The position numbers were made by a program, and so were the translations under genes. The notes beneath the pieces were generated by a model that did no database searches, was not told where the DNA came from, and saw only the letters and a program-made list of their open reading frames with translations. Below, in pieces: positions 2,635-50,038 of a stretch of DNA of 64,000 nt. This stretch comes from an uncultured Eubacteriales bacterium (GTDB lineage Bacteria > Bacillota > Clostridia > Lachnospirales > CAZQDT01). The stretch lies in contig CAZQDT010000001.1 in the NCBI GenBank assembly GCA_964592005.1, positions 602-64,601 on the forward strand. The letters run 5' to 3'. The first letter of the stretch is position 1. The number at the start of each line of letters is the position of its first letter.

Positions 2635-5600
2635 ATGCTTTCAAAAATTTCAATAAAAAGACCTGTAACTACGGTAATGCTTATACTTATGGTATTTTTG
2701 GGAGGAATTTTAGCCTACAGCACTTTAAATCTTGAACTTATGCCTTCTATGAATATACCTATGGCGGTAGTAAGTACTACTTATACCGGAGCAGGACCAG
2801 AGGAAATAGAAAACCTTATAACAAAACCTATTGAATCGACTATGGGAACAGTAACTAATGTAGAAACAGTAAGTTCAATTTCTTCAAGTGGTTCTTCAAT
2901 AGTAATGATAGAGTTTGTTGATGGAACGGATGTAGATATGGCAGCTTTGGATATGCGTGAAAAGATAGATATGATAAAAGGTTATCTTCCTGATGATGCA
3001 GATGATCCTATGGTGCTTAAAATAGATATCAATGCAGAACCTATAACTATCGGCATTACAAGTGATAAAATGGATTTGAAAGAGCTTAATACTCTTATAA
3101 ATGATGAAATATCCAATACAATAGAAAAAATAGAGGGTGTATCTTCAGTAAGTGTTTCAGGTGGTCTTGAAGATGAAATAGAAATAGTTATAAATCCTGA
3201 AAAATTGCAGGGATATGGATTAAGTGCAATGCAAATAGTTCAAAGCCTTGCATCAGAAAATCTCAATTATCCTGCCGGAAATGTAATGCAGGGTGAAACT
3301 AAATTACAGGTTAGACTTTTGGGTGAGTTTGAGTCAATAGATGATATAAAATATTTGCCGATAACAACGCCAACAGGGGCAGTAATATATTTAGATGATA
3401 TAGCAGAAATTAATCAAACTTCAAAAGATGTAGAAGCAGTAAGTATAATAAATGGAGTTAGGGGAGTAACCCTTTCCATAGATAAACAGTCTACTGCAAA
3501 TTTGGTTGAAGTTTCTGATAAAATTACAGAAACAATACAAAAGCTTAATAAAGAATATCCTAATATAACCATAAAGATGATTTCTAGTAGCGCAGGTTAT
3601 ATAAGATATTCTATAAATAATGTTGTTTCAACAGCATTTCAAAGTGCTTTGGTTGCTGTCATCGTTTTGGTGATATTTTTGAAAGACCCAAAGACTTCTT
3701 TAGTAATAGGTATGTCAATACCCGCATCAATAATGGCTACTTTTGCACTTATGTATTTAAAAGGAATGAGTATGAATATTATTTCTATGGGCGGTATTAC
3801 CATAGGAATAGGTATGCTTGTAGATAACTCGGTTGTTGTACTTGAAAATATATTTACACATTGGAAAAATGGAGAAGAACCGAAAGAAGCATCTTATAAA
3901 GGTGCATCAGAAGTTGCAATGGCGGTTACAGCGTCTACTCTTACAACAGTAGCGGTATTTTTGCCATTGGCATTTTCGAGTGGAATAGTAGGACAGATAT
4001 TCCAGGATTTGTCATTTACAATATGCTTTGCACTTTTATCATCATTAGTAGTATCCCTTACATTTGTACCAATGATGTGTTCAAGACTTCTTAGTGAGGA
4101 TAAAAGAGGAACACAGCCTAAGAAGGGTTGGTTTACAAAATTTTTGGATGCTTGGGAAAGAGGGCTTGATGGAATAAATAATTTCTATCAAAAGGTTCTG
4201 AAATGGTGTCTTAAAAATCAAAAGAAAACGATTGCAATAGTATTGGCAGTATTTTTTGGAACTTTAGCAATTACTCCGATTATGGGATTTGATTTTATGC
4301 CGGAGATGGACGAAGGTTCAGCAAGTATAACTATTGAAATGCCAAAAGGTACGGTATTGGATAAAACAATAGAAGTGGTAGATATAGTGCTTGAAAGAAT
4401 ATCTGATATACCTGAATTGAATTTGATATATGCAAATATTGGTGGTGGAAGTAGTTTTTCGGCAGGTTCAGCTGATTCTGCAACGGTTACAGTATCTCTT
4501 GTAGGAAAAACTCAAAGAGAAAAAAGTACAAAAGAGGTTGTAAAAGAAATAGAGCAAAGACTTTCTGGTGTAGCAGGAGCAGAAATTACAGTAGCTGCTT
4601 CTGATGCAGCTATGGGACAGCTTGCAGGTTCGACTCTTTCTTTACAGATTTCTGGTGATGATATAGATGTGCTTAAGGAAATAAGTAATGATGTTATAGC
4701 ACTTATAAATGAAATACCGGGAGCAAAAGATATTGAATCTTCAGCAGGTGAAACTGTTTCTGAAACTAACATAGTAATTAACAGAGCAAAAGCTTCTCAA
4801 TATGGTGTAACTGCATCTTCGATATCAAGTGCTTTGAGTAGTGCGGTCAAGGGTACAACTGCTACGCAATATAAGGTAGATGGTACGGAGATAGATGTTA
4901 CAATTAGATATGACAAAGAAAGAGTAAATTATATAAATGACCTTAAAAATATAACTGTAATGACTTCAACAGGTGCGTCAGTACCTATAACGGAAGTAGC
5001 AGATATTGTAGTAGAAGATAGTGCGGTTTCCATTTCAAGAGAAAATCAGCACAGATATATTACAATAGAGGGAAATATAGAAGGGAAAGATACAAGTACA
5101 ATAGAAAAGCTTGTAGAAGAAAAACTTTCTGGTTATGATATGCCAGATGGTTACAGTTATAGTTTTACAGGAATTATGGAACAGATGGAAGAAGCTTTCA
5201 ACAGTCTGTTTTTGGTTTTGATTGTAGCAATACTTTTAGTATATATGATAATGGCATCACAGTTTGAGTCACTTGTATATCCTTTTATAGTTATGTTTTC
5301 AATGCCAATTGCTATTACAGGAGGAATTTTAGGATTATTTATTACAGGAAATACAATTACGGTAGTATCTTTTATGGGCTTTATAATGCTTGTAGGTATG
5401 GTTGTAAATAATGCCATTGTGCTTATAGATTATACAAATCAGATAATAGAGCAGAAACATATTAAATGTGAAGAAGCTTTGCTTGAAGCTGGTCCAAATA
5501 GATTAAGACCTATTCTTATGACAACGCTTACTACAATAGTAGGTTTAGTACCTATGGCAATAGGCTCGGCAGAAGGTATGGAAATGGAAAAACCTTTGGC

Positions 5601-24487: not shown

Positions 24488-27400
24488 ATGAAAGGAGTGT
24501 TTCTCTTGAAAGATAAAAGATTTATGGCGGCTTTACTTGCAGGAACTATGGTATTATCCAATGGTGCAGTAGTTAATGCCGATATGAAATATGAAGCAGG
24601 ACTTCCAGCACAAAGTGACTCGTCAACCCAGTTGGTAGATGTTCTTGAGCCGCTTTCAGATATTCCTGCTTTCCCGGGAGCTGATGGATATGCTAAATAT
24701 GTTACAGGTGGACGTGGAGGAAAAATTATTCATGTAACTAATTTGAATGCTTCAGGAGAAGGTTCGTTGACTGCGGCATTAGAAAATGGTGGTAAAACAA
24801 GCGAGCCTAGAATTATTGTATTTGATGTGTCGGGTACTATTGTTATAGGAAAAGAATTATATAAGAAAAGCTATTCAAATGTTACTATTGCAGGTCAAAC
24901 AGCACCGGGCGAAGGTATTACAATAACAAATGAAAACTTTTATTTAGCACATTCTGATAATGTTATTATAAGATTTATTAAATTTAGGCATGGTCAGGCG
25001 ACAGCAAAAGATGACTCTTTCTATGTACAAAACAGTACAAATATTATGATTGACCATTGTTCATTTGAATATGGTAGTGATGAATCCTGTTCTGCAAGAG
25101 AGAATTCTAATCTTACTTTCCAGTGGTCAATATTGACTAATGGCGTAAGAACTCACTCAATGGGTGGTTTACAGGAATGGAATTCAGAAACAATTCACCA
25201 TTGTTTAATGGGTAACCAGAATGACCGTAACCCTAAAGCCAAAGGTATTATGGATTTTACAAATAATGTAGTTTATAACTGGGGTGATTATCCTTTTGTT
25301 GCAGGTGGTAACTCAGGTGGTCAAGGCTGGGGTAATGTTGTAAATAACTACTTTATAGCTGGTTCAGATACAAAAGACCCAAATCATGCTATTACAAGAA
25401 GTAATGGTAAATATTTCTTGCATTTGGCAGGAAATTTAATTGATTCAAATAAGAATGGTAAATTAGATGGTGTAAATACAGGTATTGATATGATTGCAAC
25501 CTATAATGATGCTAAATATCCTGATAGATTTACATTCCCTGATGATTATACCCTTCCATTGGTGTTGATTAAAAATCGTATGGCTATGGCTGAATTGGAT
25601 TATGTTGACAGTGCAGAAGATGCCTACTATAAAGTAATGGATTTTGCGGGAGATTCAGTATATTATAATACAGATGGTACAACAAAATTATTCCATGATG
25701 ATATAGATACGGAAATTTTATCAGGTGTTCAAAATCAGACTGGAAAACTTCTTCTTCATAATAAAGAAAGTCATAATGAAAAAGGAGAAATCTTTGACCA
25801 AAACTTTATAAATAATCGTCCTCAAATAAATGTAAATGACCCATCTTCAGAGTGGTATCGTCCTGATACTGACCAAGATGGTATGCCAGATGCTTGGGAA
25901 TTGGCTAATGGATTAGACCCTAATAATGCGGAAGACAGAAATAATAAAAATGATGCAGGATATACAATGATAGAAGTATATTTGAATGAATTGGCAGAAC
26001 CGGCATTCCCTGACAATACATATTCTACTGAAGATAAAAAAATAGCAGAAATTATGAAACCTGGTAGAAAAAATGTTCTTGTTTTAGAAAAACAAGGGAA
26101 AGAATATTACTATGATGTTATTAATGGTAAAAATCAGTTAATGATTCCATTAGCACCAGTGGCTGAATATTTAGGATATAAAATGATTAATGTAGCAGAA
26201 GATACAGTAACTATGAGATATCCAGAAGAATTTCCATTAGGTGGTCTTAACTGTGAAGGTAATAATGATGTTATTACGTTTTCGGCAGGAGATGTTAAAT
26301 TCAATGAAACTCTTGTAACTTATGAAGGAAAGTTGTATATGCCTATCAATTATGTATCCTATGGTATGGTAGGTGTTTATGACCAAGTATTGGTAAGTAA
26401 AGAGGATAATATAGTTAATATTTATATAAAAGATGCAGAATTTTATAAAGATTGGCATAAAAATGATGCAAGACAAGAACGTTTAAAATCTGCACCATCT
26501 ATGCTGGCAGAATTTGTAGAAAATAAAACAGAAGATAATACAGAAGTTAAACAACTTAAGATTACTTTTGATAAAGAAGCAGCTTTGGCAGATAATACAA
26601 CAGCAACAATAAGTATTACAAAGAAGACACCATCTTTGACAGTATCAGAAAGTGTATATAATAATGTCTATTCAACATCTACATTTACTGCAAATATAAG
26701 TGATGTGGATATTTGGGGTTCAAATAAGGTTGCGGTTATTAATTTTGAGAATTTTAGAAGTGTTAAAGGAAAATCTTTAAGTGATGATTTTGATGAAACA
26801 GCAACTTATACTGTAAAAATAGATGCAGGTGCTTTTGCTGATTATTACAATGATTATTATGGAACAGATTATGTTACAGATGAAAAAGAATTTGAAATAA
26901 GTTCTATAACAAAAACAACGAATAATCCATCGAACAAAGAGGTTAATGGAGAAACAGAAAATGAATATTTTGTGCAGGAAGATACTTCAACAGTGACAGT
27001 TAAAGAACTTATGCAGGCAGTTTATAAATTGCTTGCTATGAAAGAAGTAAATGCTTCTAACTATGACCAGATTAATGATGGAACAGTAATAGAACCAGAT
27101 GATGCCAATAAAGATGATGACGGAAAAGATGATGACAATAAAGATGATGACGGAAAAGATGATGACGGAAAAGATGATGACAATAAAGATGATGACGGAA
27201 AAGATGATGACGGAAAAGATAATGACGGAAAAGACGATGACGGAAAAGATGATGACAACAATGACGATGACTACGATAGTGATGATGAAACAGAGCCAGA
27301 AGAGCCACAATTACCTACAATGATTGGTAAGGAGACAGTGGAAGAAGCAGGGAATGTTTCTGGAACAGATTCTAAAGAAATTGAAATTATTGTAGATGAA

Positions 27401-28219
27401 AAGGTTGAAGTTACTAAAGAAGCAGTAGAAGAAATTATTAAGCAGGAGAAAGATTTAGTAATAAACACAGGAAATACATCATTGATTATAAGTAATAGTA
27501 CATTTGTTTCAGAAAATGTTGAAACGAAGATTGAAGCAAGTATTGAAAATCCTTCAAGTAAAGATTTGAAAGAAATCAAAAATGATATTAAGAATGATTC
27601 AAATATCACAGAATTGATTAGTTCTAAAGAAATAAGTATTACAACTGATGGTAATGAAGTAGACCTTGTGAATAAAGAACCATTGACAGTATCTGTAAAA
27701 ATACCAAATAATGTTAAAGATACAGATAAACTTACAGCTGTAAGATATGAAGAACAGGAAGATGGAAGTCTTAAAGCTGTTAAGATAGGTGGTACATACG
27801 ATGCTGAAACAAAGAGCTTTACATATCGTACAGATAAGACTGGTATAATAGCAATTGTAAAAGCAGAAGAGGTAAAACAGGTAAAACTTACAATAGGAGC
27901 TAATGAAATGAATATTAATGGACAAAACATAGTAAATGATGTTGCACCTATTGTAGAAAATGATAGAACATATTTACCAATAAGAGTTATAGCAGAAAGT
28001 TTAGGTGCTGAAGTTGGTTGGGAGCAGGAAACACAGTCTGTAACAGTTACTTTAAATGGTAAAGTACTTAGATTTAATGTAAATGAAGAGATAGAAGGAT
28101 ATGGAAAACCATTAGTTATAAATCAAAGAACATTAGTACCTGTAAGATATATAGCTGAACAGTTGGGTGCAAATGTATTGTGGGTACCTTCTACAAATGA
28201 AATTGAAATTGTAAGATAA
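24488..28219 (+). CDS. multidomain secreted pectate lyase (PL1-like catalytic domain)
   Basis: 1243 aa with a signal peptide. A TTG at 24506 behind AAGGAG is an alternative start. PL1-type motifs are present: IMIDHCSF, and RNPKAKG matching the R.P..R region. Also a DTDQDGMPDAWE calcium-binding-type motif and an acidic D/K repeat. Two copper-amine-oxidase-N-terminal-like domains include the C-terminus (DRTYLPIRVIAESLGAEV...RTLVPVRYIAEQLGANV). Confidence 0.8.
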   Translation: MKGVFLLKDKRFMAALLAGTMVLSNGAVVNADMKYEAGLPAQSDSSTQLVDVLEPLSDIPAFPGADGYAKYVTGGRGGKIIHVTNLNASGEGSLTAALENGGKTSEPRIIVFDVSGTIVIGKELYKKSYSNVTIAGQTAPGEGITITNENFYLAHSDNVIIRFIKFRHGQATAKDDSFYVQNSTNIMIDHCSFEYGSDESCSARENSNLTFQWSILTNGVRTHSMGGLQEWNSETIHHCLMGNQNDRNPKAKGIMDFTNNVVYNWGDYPFVAGGNSGGQGWGNVVNNYFIAGSDTKDPNHAITRSNGKYFLHLAGNLIDSNKNGKLDGVNTGIDMIATYNDAKYPDRFTFPDDYTLPLVLIKNRMAMAELDYVDSAEDAYYKVMDFAGDSVYYNTDGTTKLFHDDIDTEILSGVQNQTGKLLLHNKESHNEKGEIFDQNFINNRPQINVNDPSSEWYRPDTDQDGMPDAWELANGLDPNNAEDRNNKNDAGYTMIEVYLNELAEPAFPDNTYSTEDKKIAEIMKPGRKNVLVLEKQGKEYYYDVINGKNQLMIPLAPVAEYLGYKMINVAEDTVTMRYPEEFPLGGLNCEGNNDVITFSAGDVKFNETLVTYEGKLYMPINYVSYGMVGVYDQVLVSKEDNIVNIYIKDAEFYKDWHKNDARQERLKSAPSMLAEFVENKTEDNTEVKQLKITFDKEAALADNTTATISITKKTPSLTVSESVYNNVYSTSTFTANISDVDIWGSNKVAVINFENFRSVKGKSLSDDFDETATYTVKIDAGAFADYYNDYYGTDYVTDEKEFEISSITKTTNNPSNKEVNGETENEYFVQEDTSTVTVKELMQAVYKLLAMKEVNASNYDQINDGTVIEPDDANKDDDGKDDDNKDDDGKDDDGKDDDNKDDDGKDDDGKDNDGKDDDGKDDDNNDDDYDSDDETEPEEPQLPTMIGKETVEEAGNVSGTDSKEIEIIVDEKVEVTKEAVEEIIKQEKDLVINTGNTSLIISNSTFVSENVETKIEASIENPSSKDLKEIKNDIKNDSNITELISSKEISITTDGNEVDLVNKEPLTVSVKIPNNVKDTDKLTAVRYEEQEDGSLKAVKIGGTYDAETKSFTYRTDKTGIIAIVKAEEVKQVKLTIGANEMNINGQNIVNDVAPIVENDRTYLPIRVIAESLGAEVGWEQETQSVTVTLNGKVLRFNVNEEIEGYGKPLVINQRTLVPVRYIAEQLGANVLWVPSTNEIEIVR
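27110..27259 (+). repeat. 10 tandem copies of a 15-bp unit (AAAGATGATGACGGA / ...AAT) inside the lyase gene
   Basis: Read directly: units start at 27110, 27125, 27140 ... 27245 and encode (KDDDG/KDDDN)n. The last units carry point changes. Confidence 0.9.
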
Positions 28220-28228
28220 ATAAAAAAA

Positions 28229-28261
28229 ATCAGCTTCTCTAAAGAGAAGTTGATTTTTTTT
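28229..28261 (+). terminator. rho-independent terminator of the lyase gene
   Basis: 11-bp stem ATCAGCTTCTC / GAGAAGTTGAT (one G-U pair), 4-nt loop, T7 run. Confidence 0.8.
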
Positions 28262-28270
28262 AAAATAATA

Positions 28271-28299
28271 TTGAAATAAATACAAAACTATGATATAGT
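28271..28299 (+). promoter_or_regulatory. promoter of the candidate antisense sRNA
   Basis: TTGAAA (28271-28276), 17-nt spacer, TGaTATAGT extended -10 (28291-28299). Confidence 0.5.
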
Positions 28300-28305
28300 A
28301 AATAT

Positions 28306-28406
28306 AAAGAAAGCATCCACTCCAAAGTGGATTGCCTACCGAATGAAGATTTTGTTTTTAAGACGCTACCTATTCTGTGGCTAGACAGGATAGGTAGTAT
28401 TTATTT
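28306..28406 (+). ncRNA. candidate antitoxin sRNA, convergent with and overlapping the 3' end of the small toxin gene
   Basis: It lies between the promoter above and a terminator: CTACCTATTCTGT 28366-28378 pairs with ACAGGATAGGTAG 28385-28397, then TATTTATTT. It also contains a 7-bp hairpin, ATCCACT-CCAA-AGTGGAT. The 3' end covers the toxin stop codon (28401-28403). Confidence 0.4.
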
Positions 28407-28517
28407 GTGCTTATTATTCCTATCTATGTAGGTAAGCAACGCAAGTAACAAACTGCCAAAAGCAATCAATAACATTAATATGTTTATAAATGTGGATATG
28501 ATTTCAAAGTTTGTCAT
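28401..28517 (-). CDS. 38-aa hydrophobic peptide, Hol-Tox-like (putative holin-like / type I toxin)
   Basis: Hand translation gives MTNFEIISTFINILMLLIAFGSLLLALLTYIDRNNKHK*. A GGGAGG RBS lies 7 nt upstream of the ATG. The peptide has one TM helix and a basic tail, the pattern of the Firmicutes Hol-Tox family (Pfam Hol_Tox). It is below the ORF-track size cutoff. Confidence 0.6.
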   Translation of the reverse strand: MTNFEIISTFINILMLLIAFGSLLLALLTYIDRNNKHK

Positions 28518-28588
28518 AGCATTACCTCCCTTCTTATATTCTAAGTTCGGGAGGCTACCACCCTGTCATGGATGACTTTCATAGGAGC

Positions 28589-28617
28589 ATTTTAACATAT
28601 TATTGTAAATTTTGCAA
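28589..28617 (-). promoter_or_regulatory. promoter of the small toxin gene
   Basis: On the minus strand: TTGCAA (28617-28612), 17-nt spacer, TAAAAT (28594-28589). The leader contains CCTCCC (28552-28547), complementary to the GGGAGG SD (28529-28524). Confidence 0.5.
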
Positions 28618-28657
28618 TCAAAAAGATGGTTTTCAAACAGCAAAAACCATCTTTTTG
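28618..28657 (-). terminator. terminator of ABC exporter operon 2
   Basis: Perfect 16-bp stem TCAAAAAGATGGTTTT / AAAACCATCTTTTTGA with an 8-nt loop, directly after the stop at 28668. Confidence 0.6.
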
Positions 28658-28667
28658 ATTATATATT

Positions 28668-30518
28668 TTATGTTTCAATTCCTGCAAATTGATTTTGATA
28701 AAGGTTATAATAACAACCTTTCTGTTTGAGCAATTCTTCGTGACTTCCTGCCTCTGCAACTACTCCCTTATCTATAACAACGATGATATCGGCATCACGT
28801 ATAGTTGAAAGTCTATGAGCTATGATAAAACTTGTTCTGCCTTTCATAAGTGAAATCATAGCATTTTGTATGTGCATTTCCGTACGTGTATCTATGGAAG
28901 AAGTAGCCTCATCAAGTATAAGTATTTTAGGGTCTGCAAGTACAGCTCTTGCAATGGATATAAGCTGACGCTGTCCCTGACTAAGATTGCTTCCATTTTC
29001 TGTAAGCATTGTGTTGTAGCCATCTGCAAGTTTTTCTGCAAATTTATCTACATTGGCTGTTATAGCCGCTTTTTTGATATCTTCATCTGTTGCATTAAGA
29101 TTACCATAACGTATATTAGCGGCTATGGTATCTGAAAATATTATAGTGTCCTGAAGAACAATAGCAATACTTTTTCTTAAAGTTTCTTTAGGAATATCAT
29201 TTATATTTATACCATCAAGCTTAATAGTGCCACTATCGACATCATAAAAACGTGTAAGAAGATTTACGACAGTAGTTTTTCCTGAACCGGTAGCACCTAC
29301 AATGGCAATCTTTTGACCACTTTTTACATTAAGGTTAAAACCTTTTAAAACAGGTTCATTAGGAACATAAGAAAATTTTATATCTTTAAATTCAAGATTT
29401 CCTTTTACATCTTCAACTTTGAAATTAGCTTTTCCTGCATCTAATTCAGGTTCTGCATCTATTATTTCAAATACACGTTCAGCACAGGCAATTGCTGTCT
29501 GAATTGAAGCATATTGATTTGCAATTTCATTTATAGGTCTTGTAAACTGTTTGGAATATAAAATAAAAGCTTGAATAATACCTATTGTGATAACACCTTC
29601 AATAGCAAGCCAACCGCCAAAACCGGCAATTATCAAAAAGCTTAGATTTCCTATGACATTCATAAGAGGTCCCATACAACCACCGACAGCTTGAGCTTTA
29701 ATTGCACATATTTTATATTCCTGACTTAATTCATTAAATTGTGCTTGAGATTTTTCTTCTTTCCCAAAAGCAATAACTGTTTTGTAACCACTTACCATTT
29801 CTTCTACATGGCCATTTACACGTCCGAGTATTCGTTGTTGTTCAGGAAAATATTTTCTCATAAATTTTGTCATATATTTTGTGGTAATTACTGTAAATAC
29901 AATAGTAATCATACTTATAAAAGTAAGTAAAGGACTGTAATACAACATAATTGCAAAACAACCTATAAGAGTAATTACACCCGAAAATAAAGAAGCAATT
30001 GACTGTGAAATAGTGTTTGAAATATTTTCAACATCATTTGTCATACGGCTCATAATATCTCCGTGTTTATGGGTATCTACATATTTAATAGGAAGATATT
30101 CAATTTTTGAAAATAAATCCTGACGCATCTTTTTGACAGTAGACTGTGACAATTTCGCAGCTGTAATACCTTGTATATAGGTAAGTGCAGAAGAAATCAA
30201 GTAAGTTAAAAGTAAAATTACTAGGGTGCTTATAAGACCTTCTTTATCTATATGTAAAGTATTCTCATCAATGGTTATTTTATCTATTGCCATACCCTGT
30301 AAAGATGGTGCGGCAAGTGAAAGTAAAGTAGTTGCTAACATAATTACAATTAAGGTTATAACTAAATATTTGTTGCTACCAACATAGGCAACAAGTTTTT
30401 TGATAGTGCCTTTGGCATCTTTTGCTTTTTCAACAGGCATTCCTCTTCCTGGACCGCCCGGTCCTCTTCCACCCGGTCTTAATGGAACGGTAGGAGTTTC
30501 TCTTCTTTCTTCAGCCAT
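28668..30518 (-). CDS. ABC exporter permease/ATPase, subunit 2 of heterodimer (paralog of 8734..10584)
   Basis: 616 aa. Walker A GATGSGKTT, variant signature LSQGQRQL, Walker B LILDEATS. Same Gly/Pro/Arg-rich N-terminal tail (RPGGRGPGGPGRGMP...EKAKD). Confidence 0.9.
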   Translation of the reverse strand: MAEERRETPTVPLRPGGRGPGGPGRGMPVEKAKDAKGTIKKLVAYVGSNKYLVITLIVIMLATTLLSLAAPSLQGMAIDKITIDENTLHIDKEGLISTLVILLLTYLISSALTYIQGITAAKLSQSTVKKMRQDLFSKIEYLPIKYVDTHKHGDIMSRMTNDVENISNTISQSIASLFSGVITLIGCFAIMLYYSPLLTFISMITIVFTVITTKYMTKFMRKYFPEQQRILGRVNGHVEEMVSGYKTVIAFGKEEKSQAQFNELSQEYKICAIKAQAVGGCMGPLMNVIGNLSFLIIAGFGGWLAIEGVITIGIIQAFILYSKQFTRPINEIANQYASIQTAIACAERVFEIIDAEPELDAGKANFKVEDVKGNLEFKDIKFSYVPNEPVLKGFNLNVKSGQKIAIVGATGSGKTTVVNLLTRFYDVDSGTIKLDGININDIPKETLRKSIAIVLQDTIIFSDTIAANIRYGNLNATDEDIKKAAITANVDKFAEKLADGYNTMLTENGSNLSQGQRQLISIARAVLADPKILILDEATSSIDTRTEMHIQNAMISLMKGRTSFIIAHRLSTIRDADIIVVIDKGVVAEAGSHEELLKQKGCYYNLYQNQFAGIET

Positions 30519-49800: not shown

Positions 49801-49803
49801 AAA

Positions 49804-49849
49804 AATAACAGATGCTGTTTTGATTAATTTCAAAGCAGCATTTGTTATT
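49804..49849. terminator. bidirectional terminator
   Basis: About 20-bp stem (49804-49823 with 49830-49849, two wobble/mismatch positions), with an A-run before and a T-run after. Confidence 0.65.
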
Positions 49850-49856
49850 TTATATT

Positions 49857-49916
49857 GGGGGAGAAAGTTAGAGAAAGAAAAAAAGGGGGGAGAAAAATAA
49901 AACCTTTCTCTAACTT
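49857..49916. other. G-run direct repeat plus 13-bp hairpin, unknown function
   Basis: GGGGGAGAAA occurs at 49857-49866 and 49886-49895. The perfect stem AAGTTAGAGAAAG (49865-49877) / CTTTCTCTAACTT (49904-49916) encloses the second G-run. Confidence 0.5.
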
Positions 49917-50038
49917 GGATTGTTTATATCTTACCATGGACTTGTGAATAAAGTTTATATAAGATGTGAACATTTTGTAAATAAATTTTATTTTTAAATG
50001 TAAATAACCCCCGCTAATAATAACGGAGGTTTAAAATA

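Follow-up and report, generated by a model that had tools for sequence, protein, structure and literature searches.

A gap of 448 nucleotides (nt) in the analysed window, i.e. the whole 64,000-nt stretch from contig CAZQDT010000001.1 of an uncultured Eubacteriales bacterium, very probably harbours an unannotated type I toxin-antitoxin module. The module is chromosomal, would belong to the TxpA/BsrG/BsrE ("Hol_Tox") family and has its two genes in a convergent order with overlap at the 3' ends. The minus strand would give rise to an mRNA of ~280 nt for a single-pass membrane peptide of 38 amino acids (aa), and the plus strand to an antisense RNA of ~100 nt. The type I interpretation had been proposed in the initial annotation of this DNA, and is supported here by the match of the peptide to the Pfam family Hol_Tox, by a conserved leader which sequesters the Shine-Dalgarno (SD) sequence of the toxin mRNA, and by a conserved promoter and terminator of the antisense gene.

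The locus was compared with about 100 homologous loci from different species. Loci L001-L016 were fetched via identical proteins, while the others were collected by scanning one genome per species for a 22-mer of the toxin leader. The 22-mer was found in at least 119 species genomes, almost all of them of Lachnospiraceae and allied Clostridia, and in 113 of its 126 occurrences (the scanned loci, L011-L016 and the window) it is followed by a Hol_Tox open reading frame (ORF). Cultured carriers include Jingyaoa shaoxingensis NSJ-46, Roseburia yibonii and Eubacterium album. L001-L016 have the same layout as the window, and several genomes harbour two copies of the module (e.g. L024 with L058, L025 with L073). 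As judged from these sequences, conservation extends to the whole module: the toxin promoter, the anti-SD leader, the coding ORF, the 3' untranslated region (UTR) with its hairpins, and the convergent antisense promoter and terminator.

The probable toxin peptide and its family

The toxin ORF (minus strand, 28401..28517; stop codon 28401-28403) encodes 38 aa, MTNFEIISTFINILMLLIAFGSLLLALLTYIDRNNKHK, with one transmembrane helix and the basic tail DRNNKHK. The Kyte-Doolittle plot (19-residue window) peaks at 2.65 and outlines one transmembrane segment. With fewer than 60 aa, one membrane-spanning helix and charged residues at its C-terminal end, the peptide has the make-up of the small Hol_Tox toxins. 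The hmmscan against Hol_Tox (PF16935) which the initial annotation had proposed as a check was positive (35.2 bits versus a cut-off of 23.3, E = 1.1e-8), with peptide residues 13-38 aligned to profile positions 6-34; the description of the peptide as Hol_Tox-like, with a single helix and a basic tail, is borne out. In a control, BsrG (38 aa), the sequence of which was confirmed as a 100% tblastn match in phage SPbeta, scored 34.5 bits on the same profile. The sequence that we take to be TxpA reached 31.3 bits, again above the cut-off. Hence, Hol_Tox represents the TxpA/BsrG family of validated type I toxins.

An exhaustive phmmer (HMMER) search, reported as representatives, yielded 81 matches with 50-68% identity to the peptide, while a profile search led to 1803 proteins, largely from Lachnospiraceae, which are named "putative holin-like toxin" at NCBI wherever they are named at all. 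In 46 distinct 38-codon homologues, the entropy amounts to 0.94 bits at the third, 0.60 at the first and 0.28 at the second codon position, and 40% of codon differences are synonymous. This order of positions, together with the synonymous share, is a coding signature. Conservation of the ORF in related strains, on which the initial annotation had made its proposal depend, is thus documented by 1803 proteins, ~100 species-level genomes and the substitution pattern. Meanwhile, the further copies it had suggested looking for are absent from the window (tblastn and blastn), and tblastn of the peptide gave no match either in 50,697 phage records or in the plasmid collection.

Many database entries of the family (P0001-P0081) are mis-called and bear spurious N- and C-terminal extensions. 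The N-terminal extensions repeat ESTHDRVVASR, MTGWQPP and QGGSLP, which are three reading frames of one conserved leader, CAUGACAGGGUGGUAGCCUCCCG, and the C-terminal read-throughs (KMPILSANRIG) are the translated conserved 3' hairpin. Protein P0045 ends in GRASCRERV, presumably a known artefact of ribosomal RNA translation; if so, this would suggest a chimeric contig.

The same architecture could also serve a peptide that does no harm. The locus would then encode a small membrane protein that regulates without being toxic and is itself controlled by an antisense RNA, for example a ComI-like inhibitor of a membrane machine, and the peptide would be a modulator with no addiction or stress-suicide behaviour. 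ComI (NF052249), the competence inhibitor of Bacillus subtilis plasmid pBS32, is indeed the best NCBIfam match of the peptide (E = 1.1e-5), the window copy is found amid ordinary chromosomal genes, and its leader has only 5 matches in IMG/VR. Moreover, some "type I toxins" are toxic only if overproduced or not at all, as in the case of YhzE-2 and BsrE (PMC2887945; PMC6562991). However, the ComI match falls far below the equivalog cut-off (25 versus 55 bits), whereas the Pfam family that is matched above threshold includes validated toxins, and repression in several layers, i.e. by SD sequestration and by antisense RNA, is typical of harmful products. A harmless modulator is hence regarded as rather improbable, and a toxin of the Hol_Tox family is the reading followed below.

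The predicted antisense gene

The antisense promoter (plus strand, 28271..28299) comprises TTGAAA (28271-28276), a 17-nt spacer and the extended -10 element TGaTATAGT (-10 box 28294-28299), exactly as it had been read in the initial annotation; the -10 box is situated beyond the predicted toxin RNA. In 90 of 92 homologous loci, the best sigma-70-type match downstream of the toxin terminator has the same position and a 17-nt spacer. The -35 box of the family reads TTGAAA/T/C, the -10 box is TG-extended in 75 of the 92 loci, and the spacers fall into 75 distinct sequences. The mean promoter score is 10.7, compared with 8.4 ± 0.8 for shuffled sequences; when this DNA is read on the toxin strand, the score is 8.0.

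The predicted antitoxin RNA (plus strand, 28306..28408, ~100 nt) covers the last two toxin codons, the stop codon and the whole 3' UTR; since it runs from a point opposite the toxin terminator to the stop codon, it would be fully complementary to the toxin 3' UTR. Its fold is more stable than those of shuffled sequences (z = -4.85), and it was aligned over 44 homologues. In the window, the initial 36 nt of the antitoxin share ~75% identity with the 5' leader of the toxin mRNA. The 7-bp hairpin attributed to this RNA was found at 28315-28332. The intrinsic terminator (plus strand, 28365..28408) consists of a 14-bp stem (28365-28398) followed by AUUUAUUUGU; in the consensus scan, the stem is followed by ATTTATTTGT and the terminator spans the toxin stop codon, where it had been placed before. 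At the sequence level, the locus thus contains what defines the convergent class: an opposite-strand gene with a promoter and a terminator of its own, complementary to the toxin 3' region.

The terminators are strand-specific throughout the family. For the stop-codon hairpin, the antisense strand gives the more stable fold in 62 of 66 distinct sequences of the family, a T-rich tail follows it on that strand only (82 of 98 loci), and its U-G wobbles on the antisense strand correspond to C.A mismatches on the toxin strand, in the window as well. With the distal hairpin it is the toxin strand that folds more stably (73 of 78 loci), and this strand also bears the U-tract. Such asymmetries are the pattern that two convergent, separately terminated transcripts would produce.

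The same observations bear on the possibility that nothing but the toxin gene with its structured leader has a function, in which case repression would be achieved purely by SD sequestration and the 5'-3' helix of the mRNA described below, and the plus-strand promoter and RNA would arise incidentally where AT-rich DNA contains a bidirectional terminator. Hairpins can be read on both strands, and promoter-like sites occur in the region at the density expected by chance in AT-rich DNA (7 versus 6.2 expected), so that the window alone is no proof of either promoter and their reality rests on conservation in the homologous loci. There, however, the -35 box, the 17-nt spacing and the TG -10 box are position-fixed in all but two of the 92 loci despite the many different spacers, and the stop-codon hairpin has its wobbles, its T-tract and its greater stability on the plus strand. 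In addition, antisense RNAs have been detected in relatives of the same layout (PMC6562991; PMC2887945). Control in cis only is therefore considered very unlikely.

Structure of the toxin mRNA and the predicted switch

All elements of the toxin transcription unit lie on the minus strand. The promoter (28589..28617) comprises TTGCAA (28617-28612), a 17-nt spacer and the extended -10 element TGtTAAAAT (28597-28589). The TTGCAA-17-TAAAAT promoter of the initial annotation was thus recovered by the consensus scan, with a TG extension in addition, and the homologous loci have a TTGxxx-17-TGnTAxAAT promoter at an equal distance from the leader. The ends of the predicted mRNA (28305..28582, ~278 nt) were deduced from the positions of the -10 box (5' end) and of the terminator (3' end). 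The 5'-terminal element GAAAGUCAUCCAUGACAGGGUGG (28558..28580) pairs with the 3' end of its own mRNA according to the minimum free energy (MFE) fold and covariation. It is followed by the anti-SD GCCUCCC (28549..28555), which has two alternative partners, namely the SD sequence GGGAGGU (28524..28530), located 6 nt before the ATG, and an SD-mimic segment of the 3' UTR, UUCGGUAGGC (28334..28343), which is complementary to the anti-SD region GCCUCCCGAA. The counterparts of the SD mimic in the homologues (CUCGGAG/UCGGGAG) covary in the alignment with the leader bases after CCUCCC. The toxin terminator (28300..28332) is made up of a 7-bp hairpin, AUCCACUUUGGAGUGGAU (28332-28315), and the tail GCUUUCUUUAUAUUU; in the consensus scan, the hairpin is followed by GCTTTCTTTA. 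Its tail and 3' arm are also what the 5' end of the mRNA pairs with. When read on the plus strand, the hairpin is the 5' hairpin of the antisense RNA.

In the MFE fold of the window mRNA (z = -6.46 versus shuffles), the SD sequence is buried in the stem GCCUCCC:GGGAGGU. The pairing claimed for the leader in the initial annotation therefore stands, but the coordinates had to be corrected: CCTCCC is found at 28554 to 28549 (not 28552-28547) and GGGAGG at 28530 to 28525 (not 28529-28524). The RNAalifold consensus of 45 non-redundant full-length homologous mRNAs features a closing helix, in which the very 5' terminus (GGAAAGUACC) is joined to the very 3' terminus (GGUGCUUUCC). It also contains the helix of anti-SD and SD, a pair of hairpins in the 3' UTR and a terminal hairpin. 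Pair counts on this consensus show 96% of cells as paired, with double-sided changes in 15 pairs as compared with 8.0 ± 1.4 in shuffles and far fewer in all slid controls. Compensatory changes are found in 8 of the 10 pairs of the 5'-3' helix, and the anti-SD:SD pairs are kept in 43-45 of the 45 homologues.

The long-distance pairing was also assessed by an alignment-free approach, in which the duplex of each locus's own segments was compared with duplexes of segments from different loci. Between the 5' end and the 3' tail, cognate duplexes reach -11.8 kcal/mol and non-cognate ones -9.7; between the leader after the anti-SD and the 3' UTR before the last hairpin, the respective values are -12.3 and -10.4 kcal/mol. 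In either test, none of 2000 permutations, which ignore phylogeny, was as good as the cognate set. The cognate duplexes together with the helix imply that the first ~39 nt of the mRNA are complementary to its last ~37 nt, the SD mimic included.

According to partition functions, the toxin leader would be bistable in the full-length mRNA. On average over 42 homologues, the anti-SD pairs with the SD sequence with a probability of 0.38 and with the 3' UTR with a probability of 0.49, the SD sequence being unpaired with a probability of 0.18. When the 3' UTR is masked, i.e. forbidden to pair in order to mimic a bound antisense RNA or a nascent transcript, these homologues shift to an anti-SD:SD probability of 0.96, with the SD sequence unpaired at 0.01. 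The corresponding predictions for the window mRNA are 0.48 for the SD sequence and 0.43 for the 3' UTR, changing to 1.00 with the SD sequence upon masking.

From the elements, family membership, conservation, covariation and predicted folding set out above, a course of transcription, RNA-RNA binding, decay and toxicity may be envisaged, although for the specific switch, i.e. competition between the 3' UTR and the SD sequence for the anti-SD and re-locking of the latter pair by the antitoxin, the chances are put somewhat below even. During transcription, the anti-SD of the leader (GCCUCCC) would pair with the SD sequence and block translation. In the finished mRNA, the extreme 5' end would pair with the extreme 3' end and the SD-like stretch of the 3' UTR would compete for the anti-SD, leaving the SD sequence accessible in part of the population. 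The antisense RNA, with its leader-like 5' part, would then bind the 3' UTR and displace the leader, whereby the anti-SD would return to the SD sequence and translation would be switched off; resemblance of the antitoxin 5' part to the leader is to be expected if the two are rivals for one partner in the 3' UTR. The duplex of ~100 bp would be a likely substrate for RNase III, leading to decay of the mRNA. Such dual action, by duplex-triggered decay and by SD re-locking, is proposed by analogy with bsrG/SR4, where like logic is seen. If made, the peptide would enter the membrane and harm or arrest the cell.

According to a wider reading, which is considered less likely than not, the module would stand for a large RNA family that has yet to be catalogued, is spread among gut Clostridia (at least 119 species, no Rfam model) and acts as a three-partner RNA switch: the SD mimic of the 3' UTR would titrate the anti-SD, the 5' end of the antitoxin would mimic the toxin leader, and the antitoxin would repress from ~200 nt away, strand displacement returning the anti-SD to the SD sequence. 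If true, the single case of bsrG/SR4 would be generalised to a conserved design principle.

Besides the chance density of promoter matches mentioned above, several points weigh against the module or its switch. Most comparison loci were selected by an exact leader match, hence the conservation of the leader and its anti-SD is partly a matter of construction. The anti-SD:SD helix is without covariation; its pairs are invariant and thus uninformative either way. The blindness of the duplex permutations to phylogeny belongs here as well. The "on" state is weakly supported, given that the predicted accessibility of the SD sequence is modest (mean 0.18) even with the anti-SD on the 3' UTR. Two hairpins of most homologues, the middle one and that of the leader, are missing from the window copy. 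Finally, among known relatives, no antitoxin-induced conformational change was seen experimentally for txpA/RatA and bsrE/SR5, and BsrE is only weakly toxic (PMC6562991).

What is added here to the earlier reading of the locus is the family-wide evidence for the antisense gene, the covarying 5'-3' helix and the finding that the 3' UTR is predicted to compete for the anti-SD, the latter two being absent from the initial annotation. Work on type I toxin-antitoxin systems has dealt with Bacillus, Enterococcus, Staphylococcus and C. difficile, while those of the abundant gut Lachnospiraceae are not covered in the searchable literature. The module leaves the existing understanding of type I systems unchanged. 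About 100 natural variants of one toxin mRNA/antitoxin pair provide enough covariation to define the RNA structures and to design experiments that ask directly if a distant ribosome-binding site is controlled by an antitoxin bound at the 3' end. There is also value for annotation, as the gene was skipped by gene callers both here and in a close relative and many family entries are mis-called.

Genomic context and variants of the module

The gap is delimited by an upstream ORF of 1243 aa (24488-28219, plus strand) and a downstream ATP-binding cassette (ABC) transporter gene (28668-30518, minus strand). It is bracketed by near-perfect inverted repeats with arms of 20 nt (28221-28262) and 28 nt (28606-28670), which resemble bidirectional terminators belonging to the neighbouring genes; the -35 box of the toxin promoter overlaps the tail of the right-hand one. 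No recognisable mobile element or prophage surrounds the window copy, which is set among ordinary chromosomal genes. In contig L137 of a close relative (Logan SRR25400500), 512 nt across the locus (3500-4011) are 100% identical to the window and the ABC transporter protein is 98% identical; the toxin ORF was missed by the gene callers there, too.

In this setting, a phage holin remnant or a chance intergenic ORF is next to excluded: the family name "holin-like" and the failure of gene finders to call the ORF in the window and in its relative would speak for them, but the ORF lies between the genes for a secreted protein of 1243 aa and an ABC transporter with no lysis cassette, endolysin or other phage gene adjoining, the peptide has no tblastn match in the phage records and the leader occurs in 5 IMG/VR contigs only, no pairing of the ORF with an endolysin was seen in phage genomes, and homologues in their hundreds exhibit a coding-type substitution pattern. 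Both readings were rejected on these grounds. Canonical holins are, moreover, larger than a 38-aa peptide with a single transmembrane segment.

The claim that this stretch is the most GC-rich and most structured intergenic region of the window proved roughly correct. When gaps that contain no long ORF and measure 150 nt or more are compared, and with one gap at the window edge set aside, it has the highest guanine-cytosine (GC) content over 250 nt (0.36 versus a typical 0.20-0.27), and the lowest fold z-score of these gaps is shared with the gap at 49801-50038. The latter is as strongly structured as the toxin locus (z ~ -9.8 in a rough test with 12 shuffles), contains by eye two long terminator-like hairpins, AACAGATGCTG...CAGCATTTGTT and GAGAAAGTTAGAGAAAG...CTTTCTCTAACTT, and has no Rfam match. 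The secreted-looking 1243-aa protein has an Asp-rich low-complexity tract at 27070-27300 (DDDGKDDDNKDDDGK..., repeated), which gives rise to long spurious ORFs in other frames.

Several variants of the module deserve mention. The commonest one (protein P0082, 844 contigs; L001-L010, 1051-1701) directly adjoins a gene for a tyrosine recombinase/integrase, and its leader contains a GC-rich insertion of ~50 nt. Loci L018, L026, L029, L043, L050 and others harbour an extra small covarying hairpin, e.g. GUGGCGAGAGCCAC or GUGAUGAUGAGUCAC. It precedes the leader by ~25 nt and is flanked by the -10 box on one side and the 5' element GGAAAG on the other; the window copy is without it. In this subset, the extra hairpin may serve as a protective 5' stem-loop.

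Comparison with known systems

The Rfam search of the whole window gave nothing at gathering score. In particular, the BsrG RNA model (RF01412) had no hit at E <= 10 in 27700-29200 and none at gathering score in the whole window, nor did it hit the Lachnospiraceae loci L001 and L011, while the positive control, SPbeta, scored 210 bits. Membership in this RNA family, for which at least 55 bits were required, was therefore rejected. Within the locus, only sub-threshold noise was seen, such as RefA5 (17 bits versus 91) and Thr_leader on the flanking terminators. A riboswitch-type reading of the leader was rejected as well.

A long-distance 5'-3' interaction of the mRNA governs translatability in hok/Sok and aapA/IsoA-type systems, and the fbi element of hok is such an interaction, as summarised in a paper on bsrG (PMC3834814). 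However, the 5'-3' pairing of hok keeps the mRNA inert until its 3' end is trimmed and Sok binds the 5' region, whereas here the antisense RNA would bind at the 3' side, and pairing of the two mRNA ends should, according to the predictions, relax the block on the SD sequence instead of tightening it. The peptide families are unrelated to the window peptide. As for ComI of pBS32, the likeness is that of a best NCBIfam match with a score below the cut-off.

The C-terminal two-thirds of the peptide (..FGSLLLALLTYIDR..) resemble what we take to be a BsrE-like sequence (IGSFIIALLTYIEK); tblastn of the latter led to 510 plasmids with genes annotated "putative holin-like toxin". In this part, the window peptide is akin to BsrE of bsrE/SR5 and to the plasmid-borne holin-like toxins of Bacillus and Lactobacillaceae. 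It differs in having ~7 extra N-terminal residues, with the Pfam match beginning at residue 13, and, in contrast to the plasmid toxins, in its lack of any tblastn match in the plasmid collection. A further difference is that SR5 causes no structural change at the SD sequence of its target (PMC6562991).

The same Pfam family includes the toxins of txpA/RatA from the skin element of B. subtilis and of EF3263 with its RatA-like RNA from Enterococcus faecalis. Members of this type have an antisense RNA over the toxin 3' UTR, which is ~110 nt long in the case of EF3263, a TxpA-family peptide that is toxic when overproduced (PMC2887945). It was pointed out by Fozo et al. (2010) that some TxpA-family members are annotated as "holin-like toxins" (PMC2887945), and TxpA-like sequences were reported earlier in Clostridiales, including C. 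bolteae (PMC2887945; PMC6563280); in the searchable literature, there is no characterisation of these Clostridiales members at the RNA level. Unlike the window peptide, TxpA has 59 aa and a long C-terminal tail, and the binding of RatA leaves the SD helix unchanged (PMC6562991).

The closest parallel is found in bsrG/SR4 of the B. subtilis prophage SPbeta. Differences exist: bsrG has no relationship to the window locus at the nucleotide level, peptide identity is low (a BLASTP segment of 12 residues), SR4 is ~180 nt long as opposed to the ~100 nt predicted here, and bsrG resides in a prophage, whereas the window copy lies outside any recognisable one. In the window, the sequence with which the mRNA 5' end pairs extends into the terminator hairpin and its tail, but it is located upstream of the terminator hairpin in bsrG. 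What the predicted window module shares with bsrG/SR4 is a toxin of 38 aa that belongs to Hol_Tox, a convergent antisense RNA overlapping the toxin 3' end, and a toxin mRNA of ~280-300 nt, with ~35 nt of its 5' end paired with the 3' UTR and the SD sequence in a stem. In bsrG mRNA, nt 1-35 pair with nt 232-262; once SR4 is bound, the 5' part becomes single-stranded and the SD helix grows from 4 to 8 bp (PMC3834814), and SR4 also acts by RNase III-dependent decay of bsrG mRNA (PMC3834814; PMC6562991). Opening of the 5'-3' helix by the antitoxin and strengthening of SD sequestration are thus experimental findings for bsrG (PMC3834814), while here the helix itself is supported by covariation and its opening is predicted. 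The geometry of txpA/RatA and bsrG/SR4, to which the locus had been likened at the outset, proved an apt comparison, as BsrG and TxpA match Hol_Tox and bsrG mRNA has a like 5'-3' helix and SD logic. As far as can be predicted, the window locus would represent an unannotated gene pair of a known family that works like this known member.

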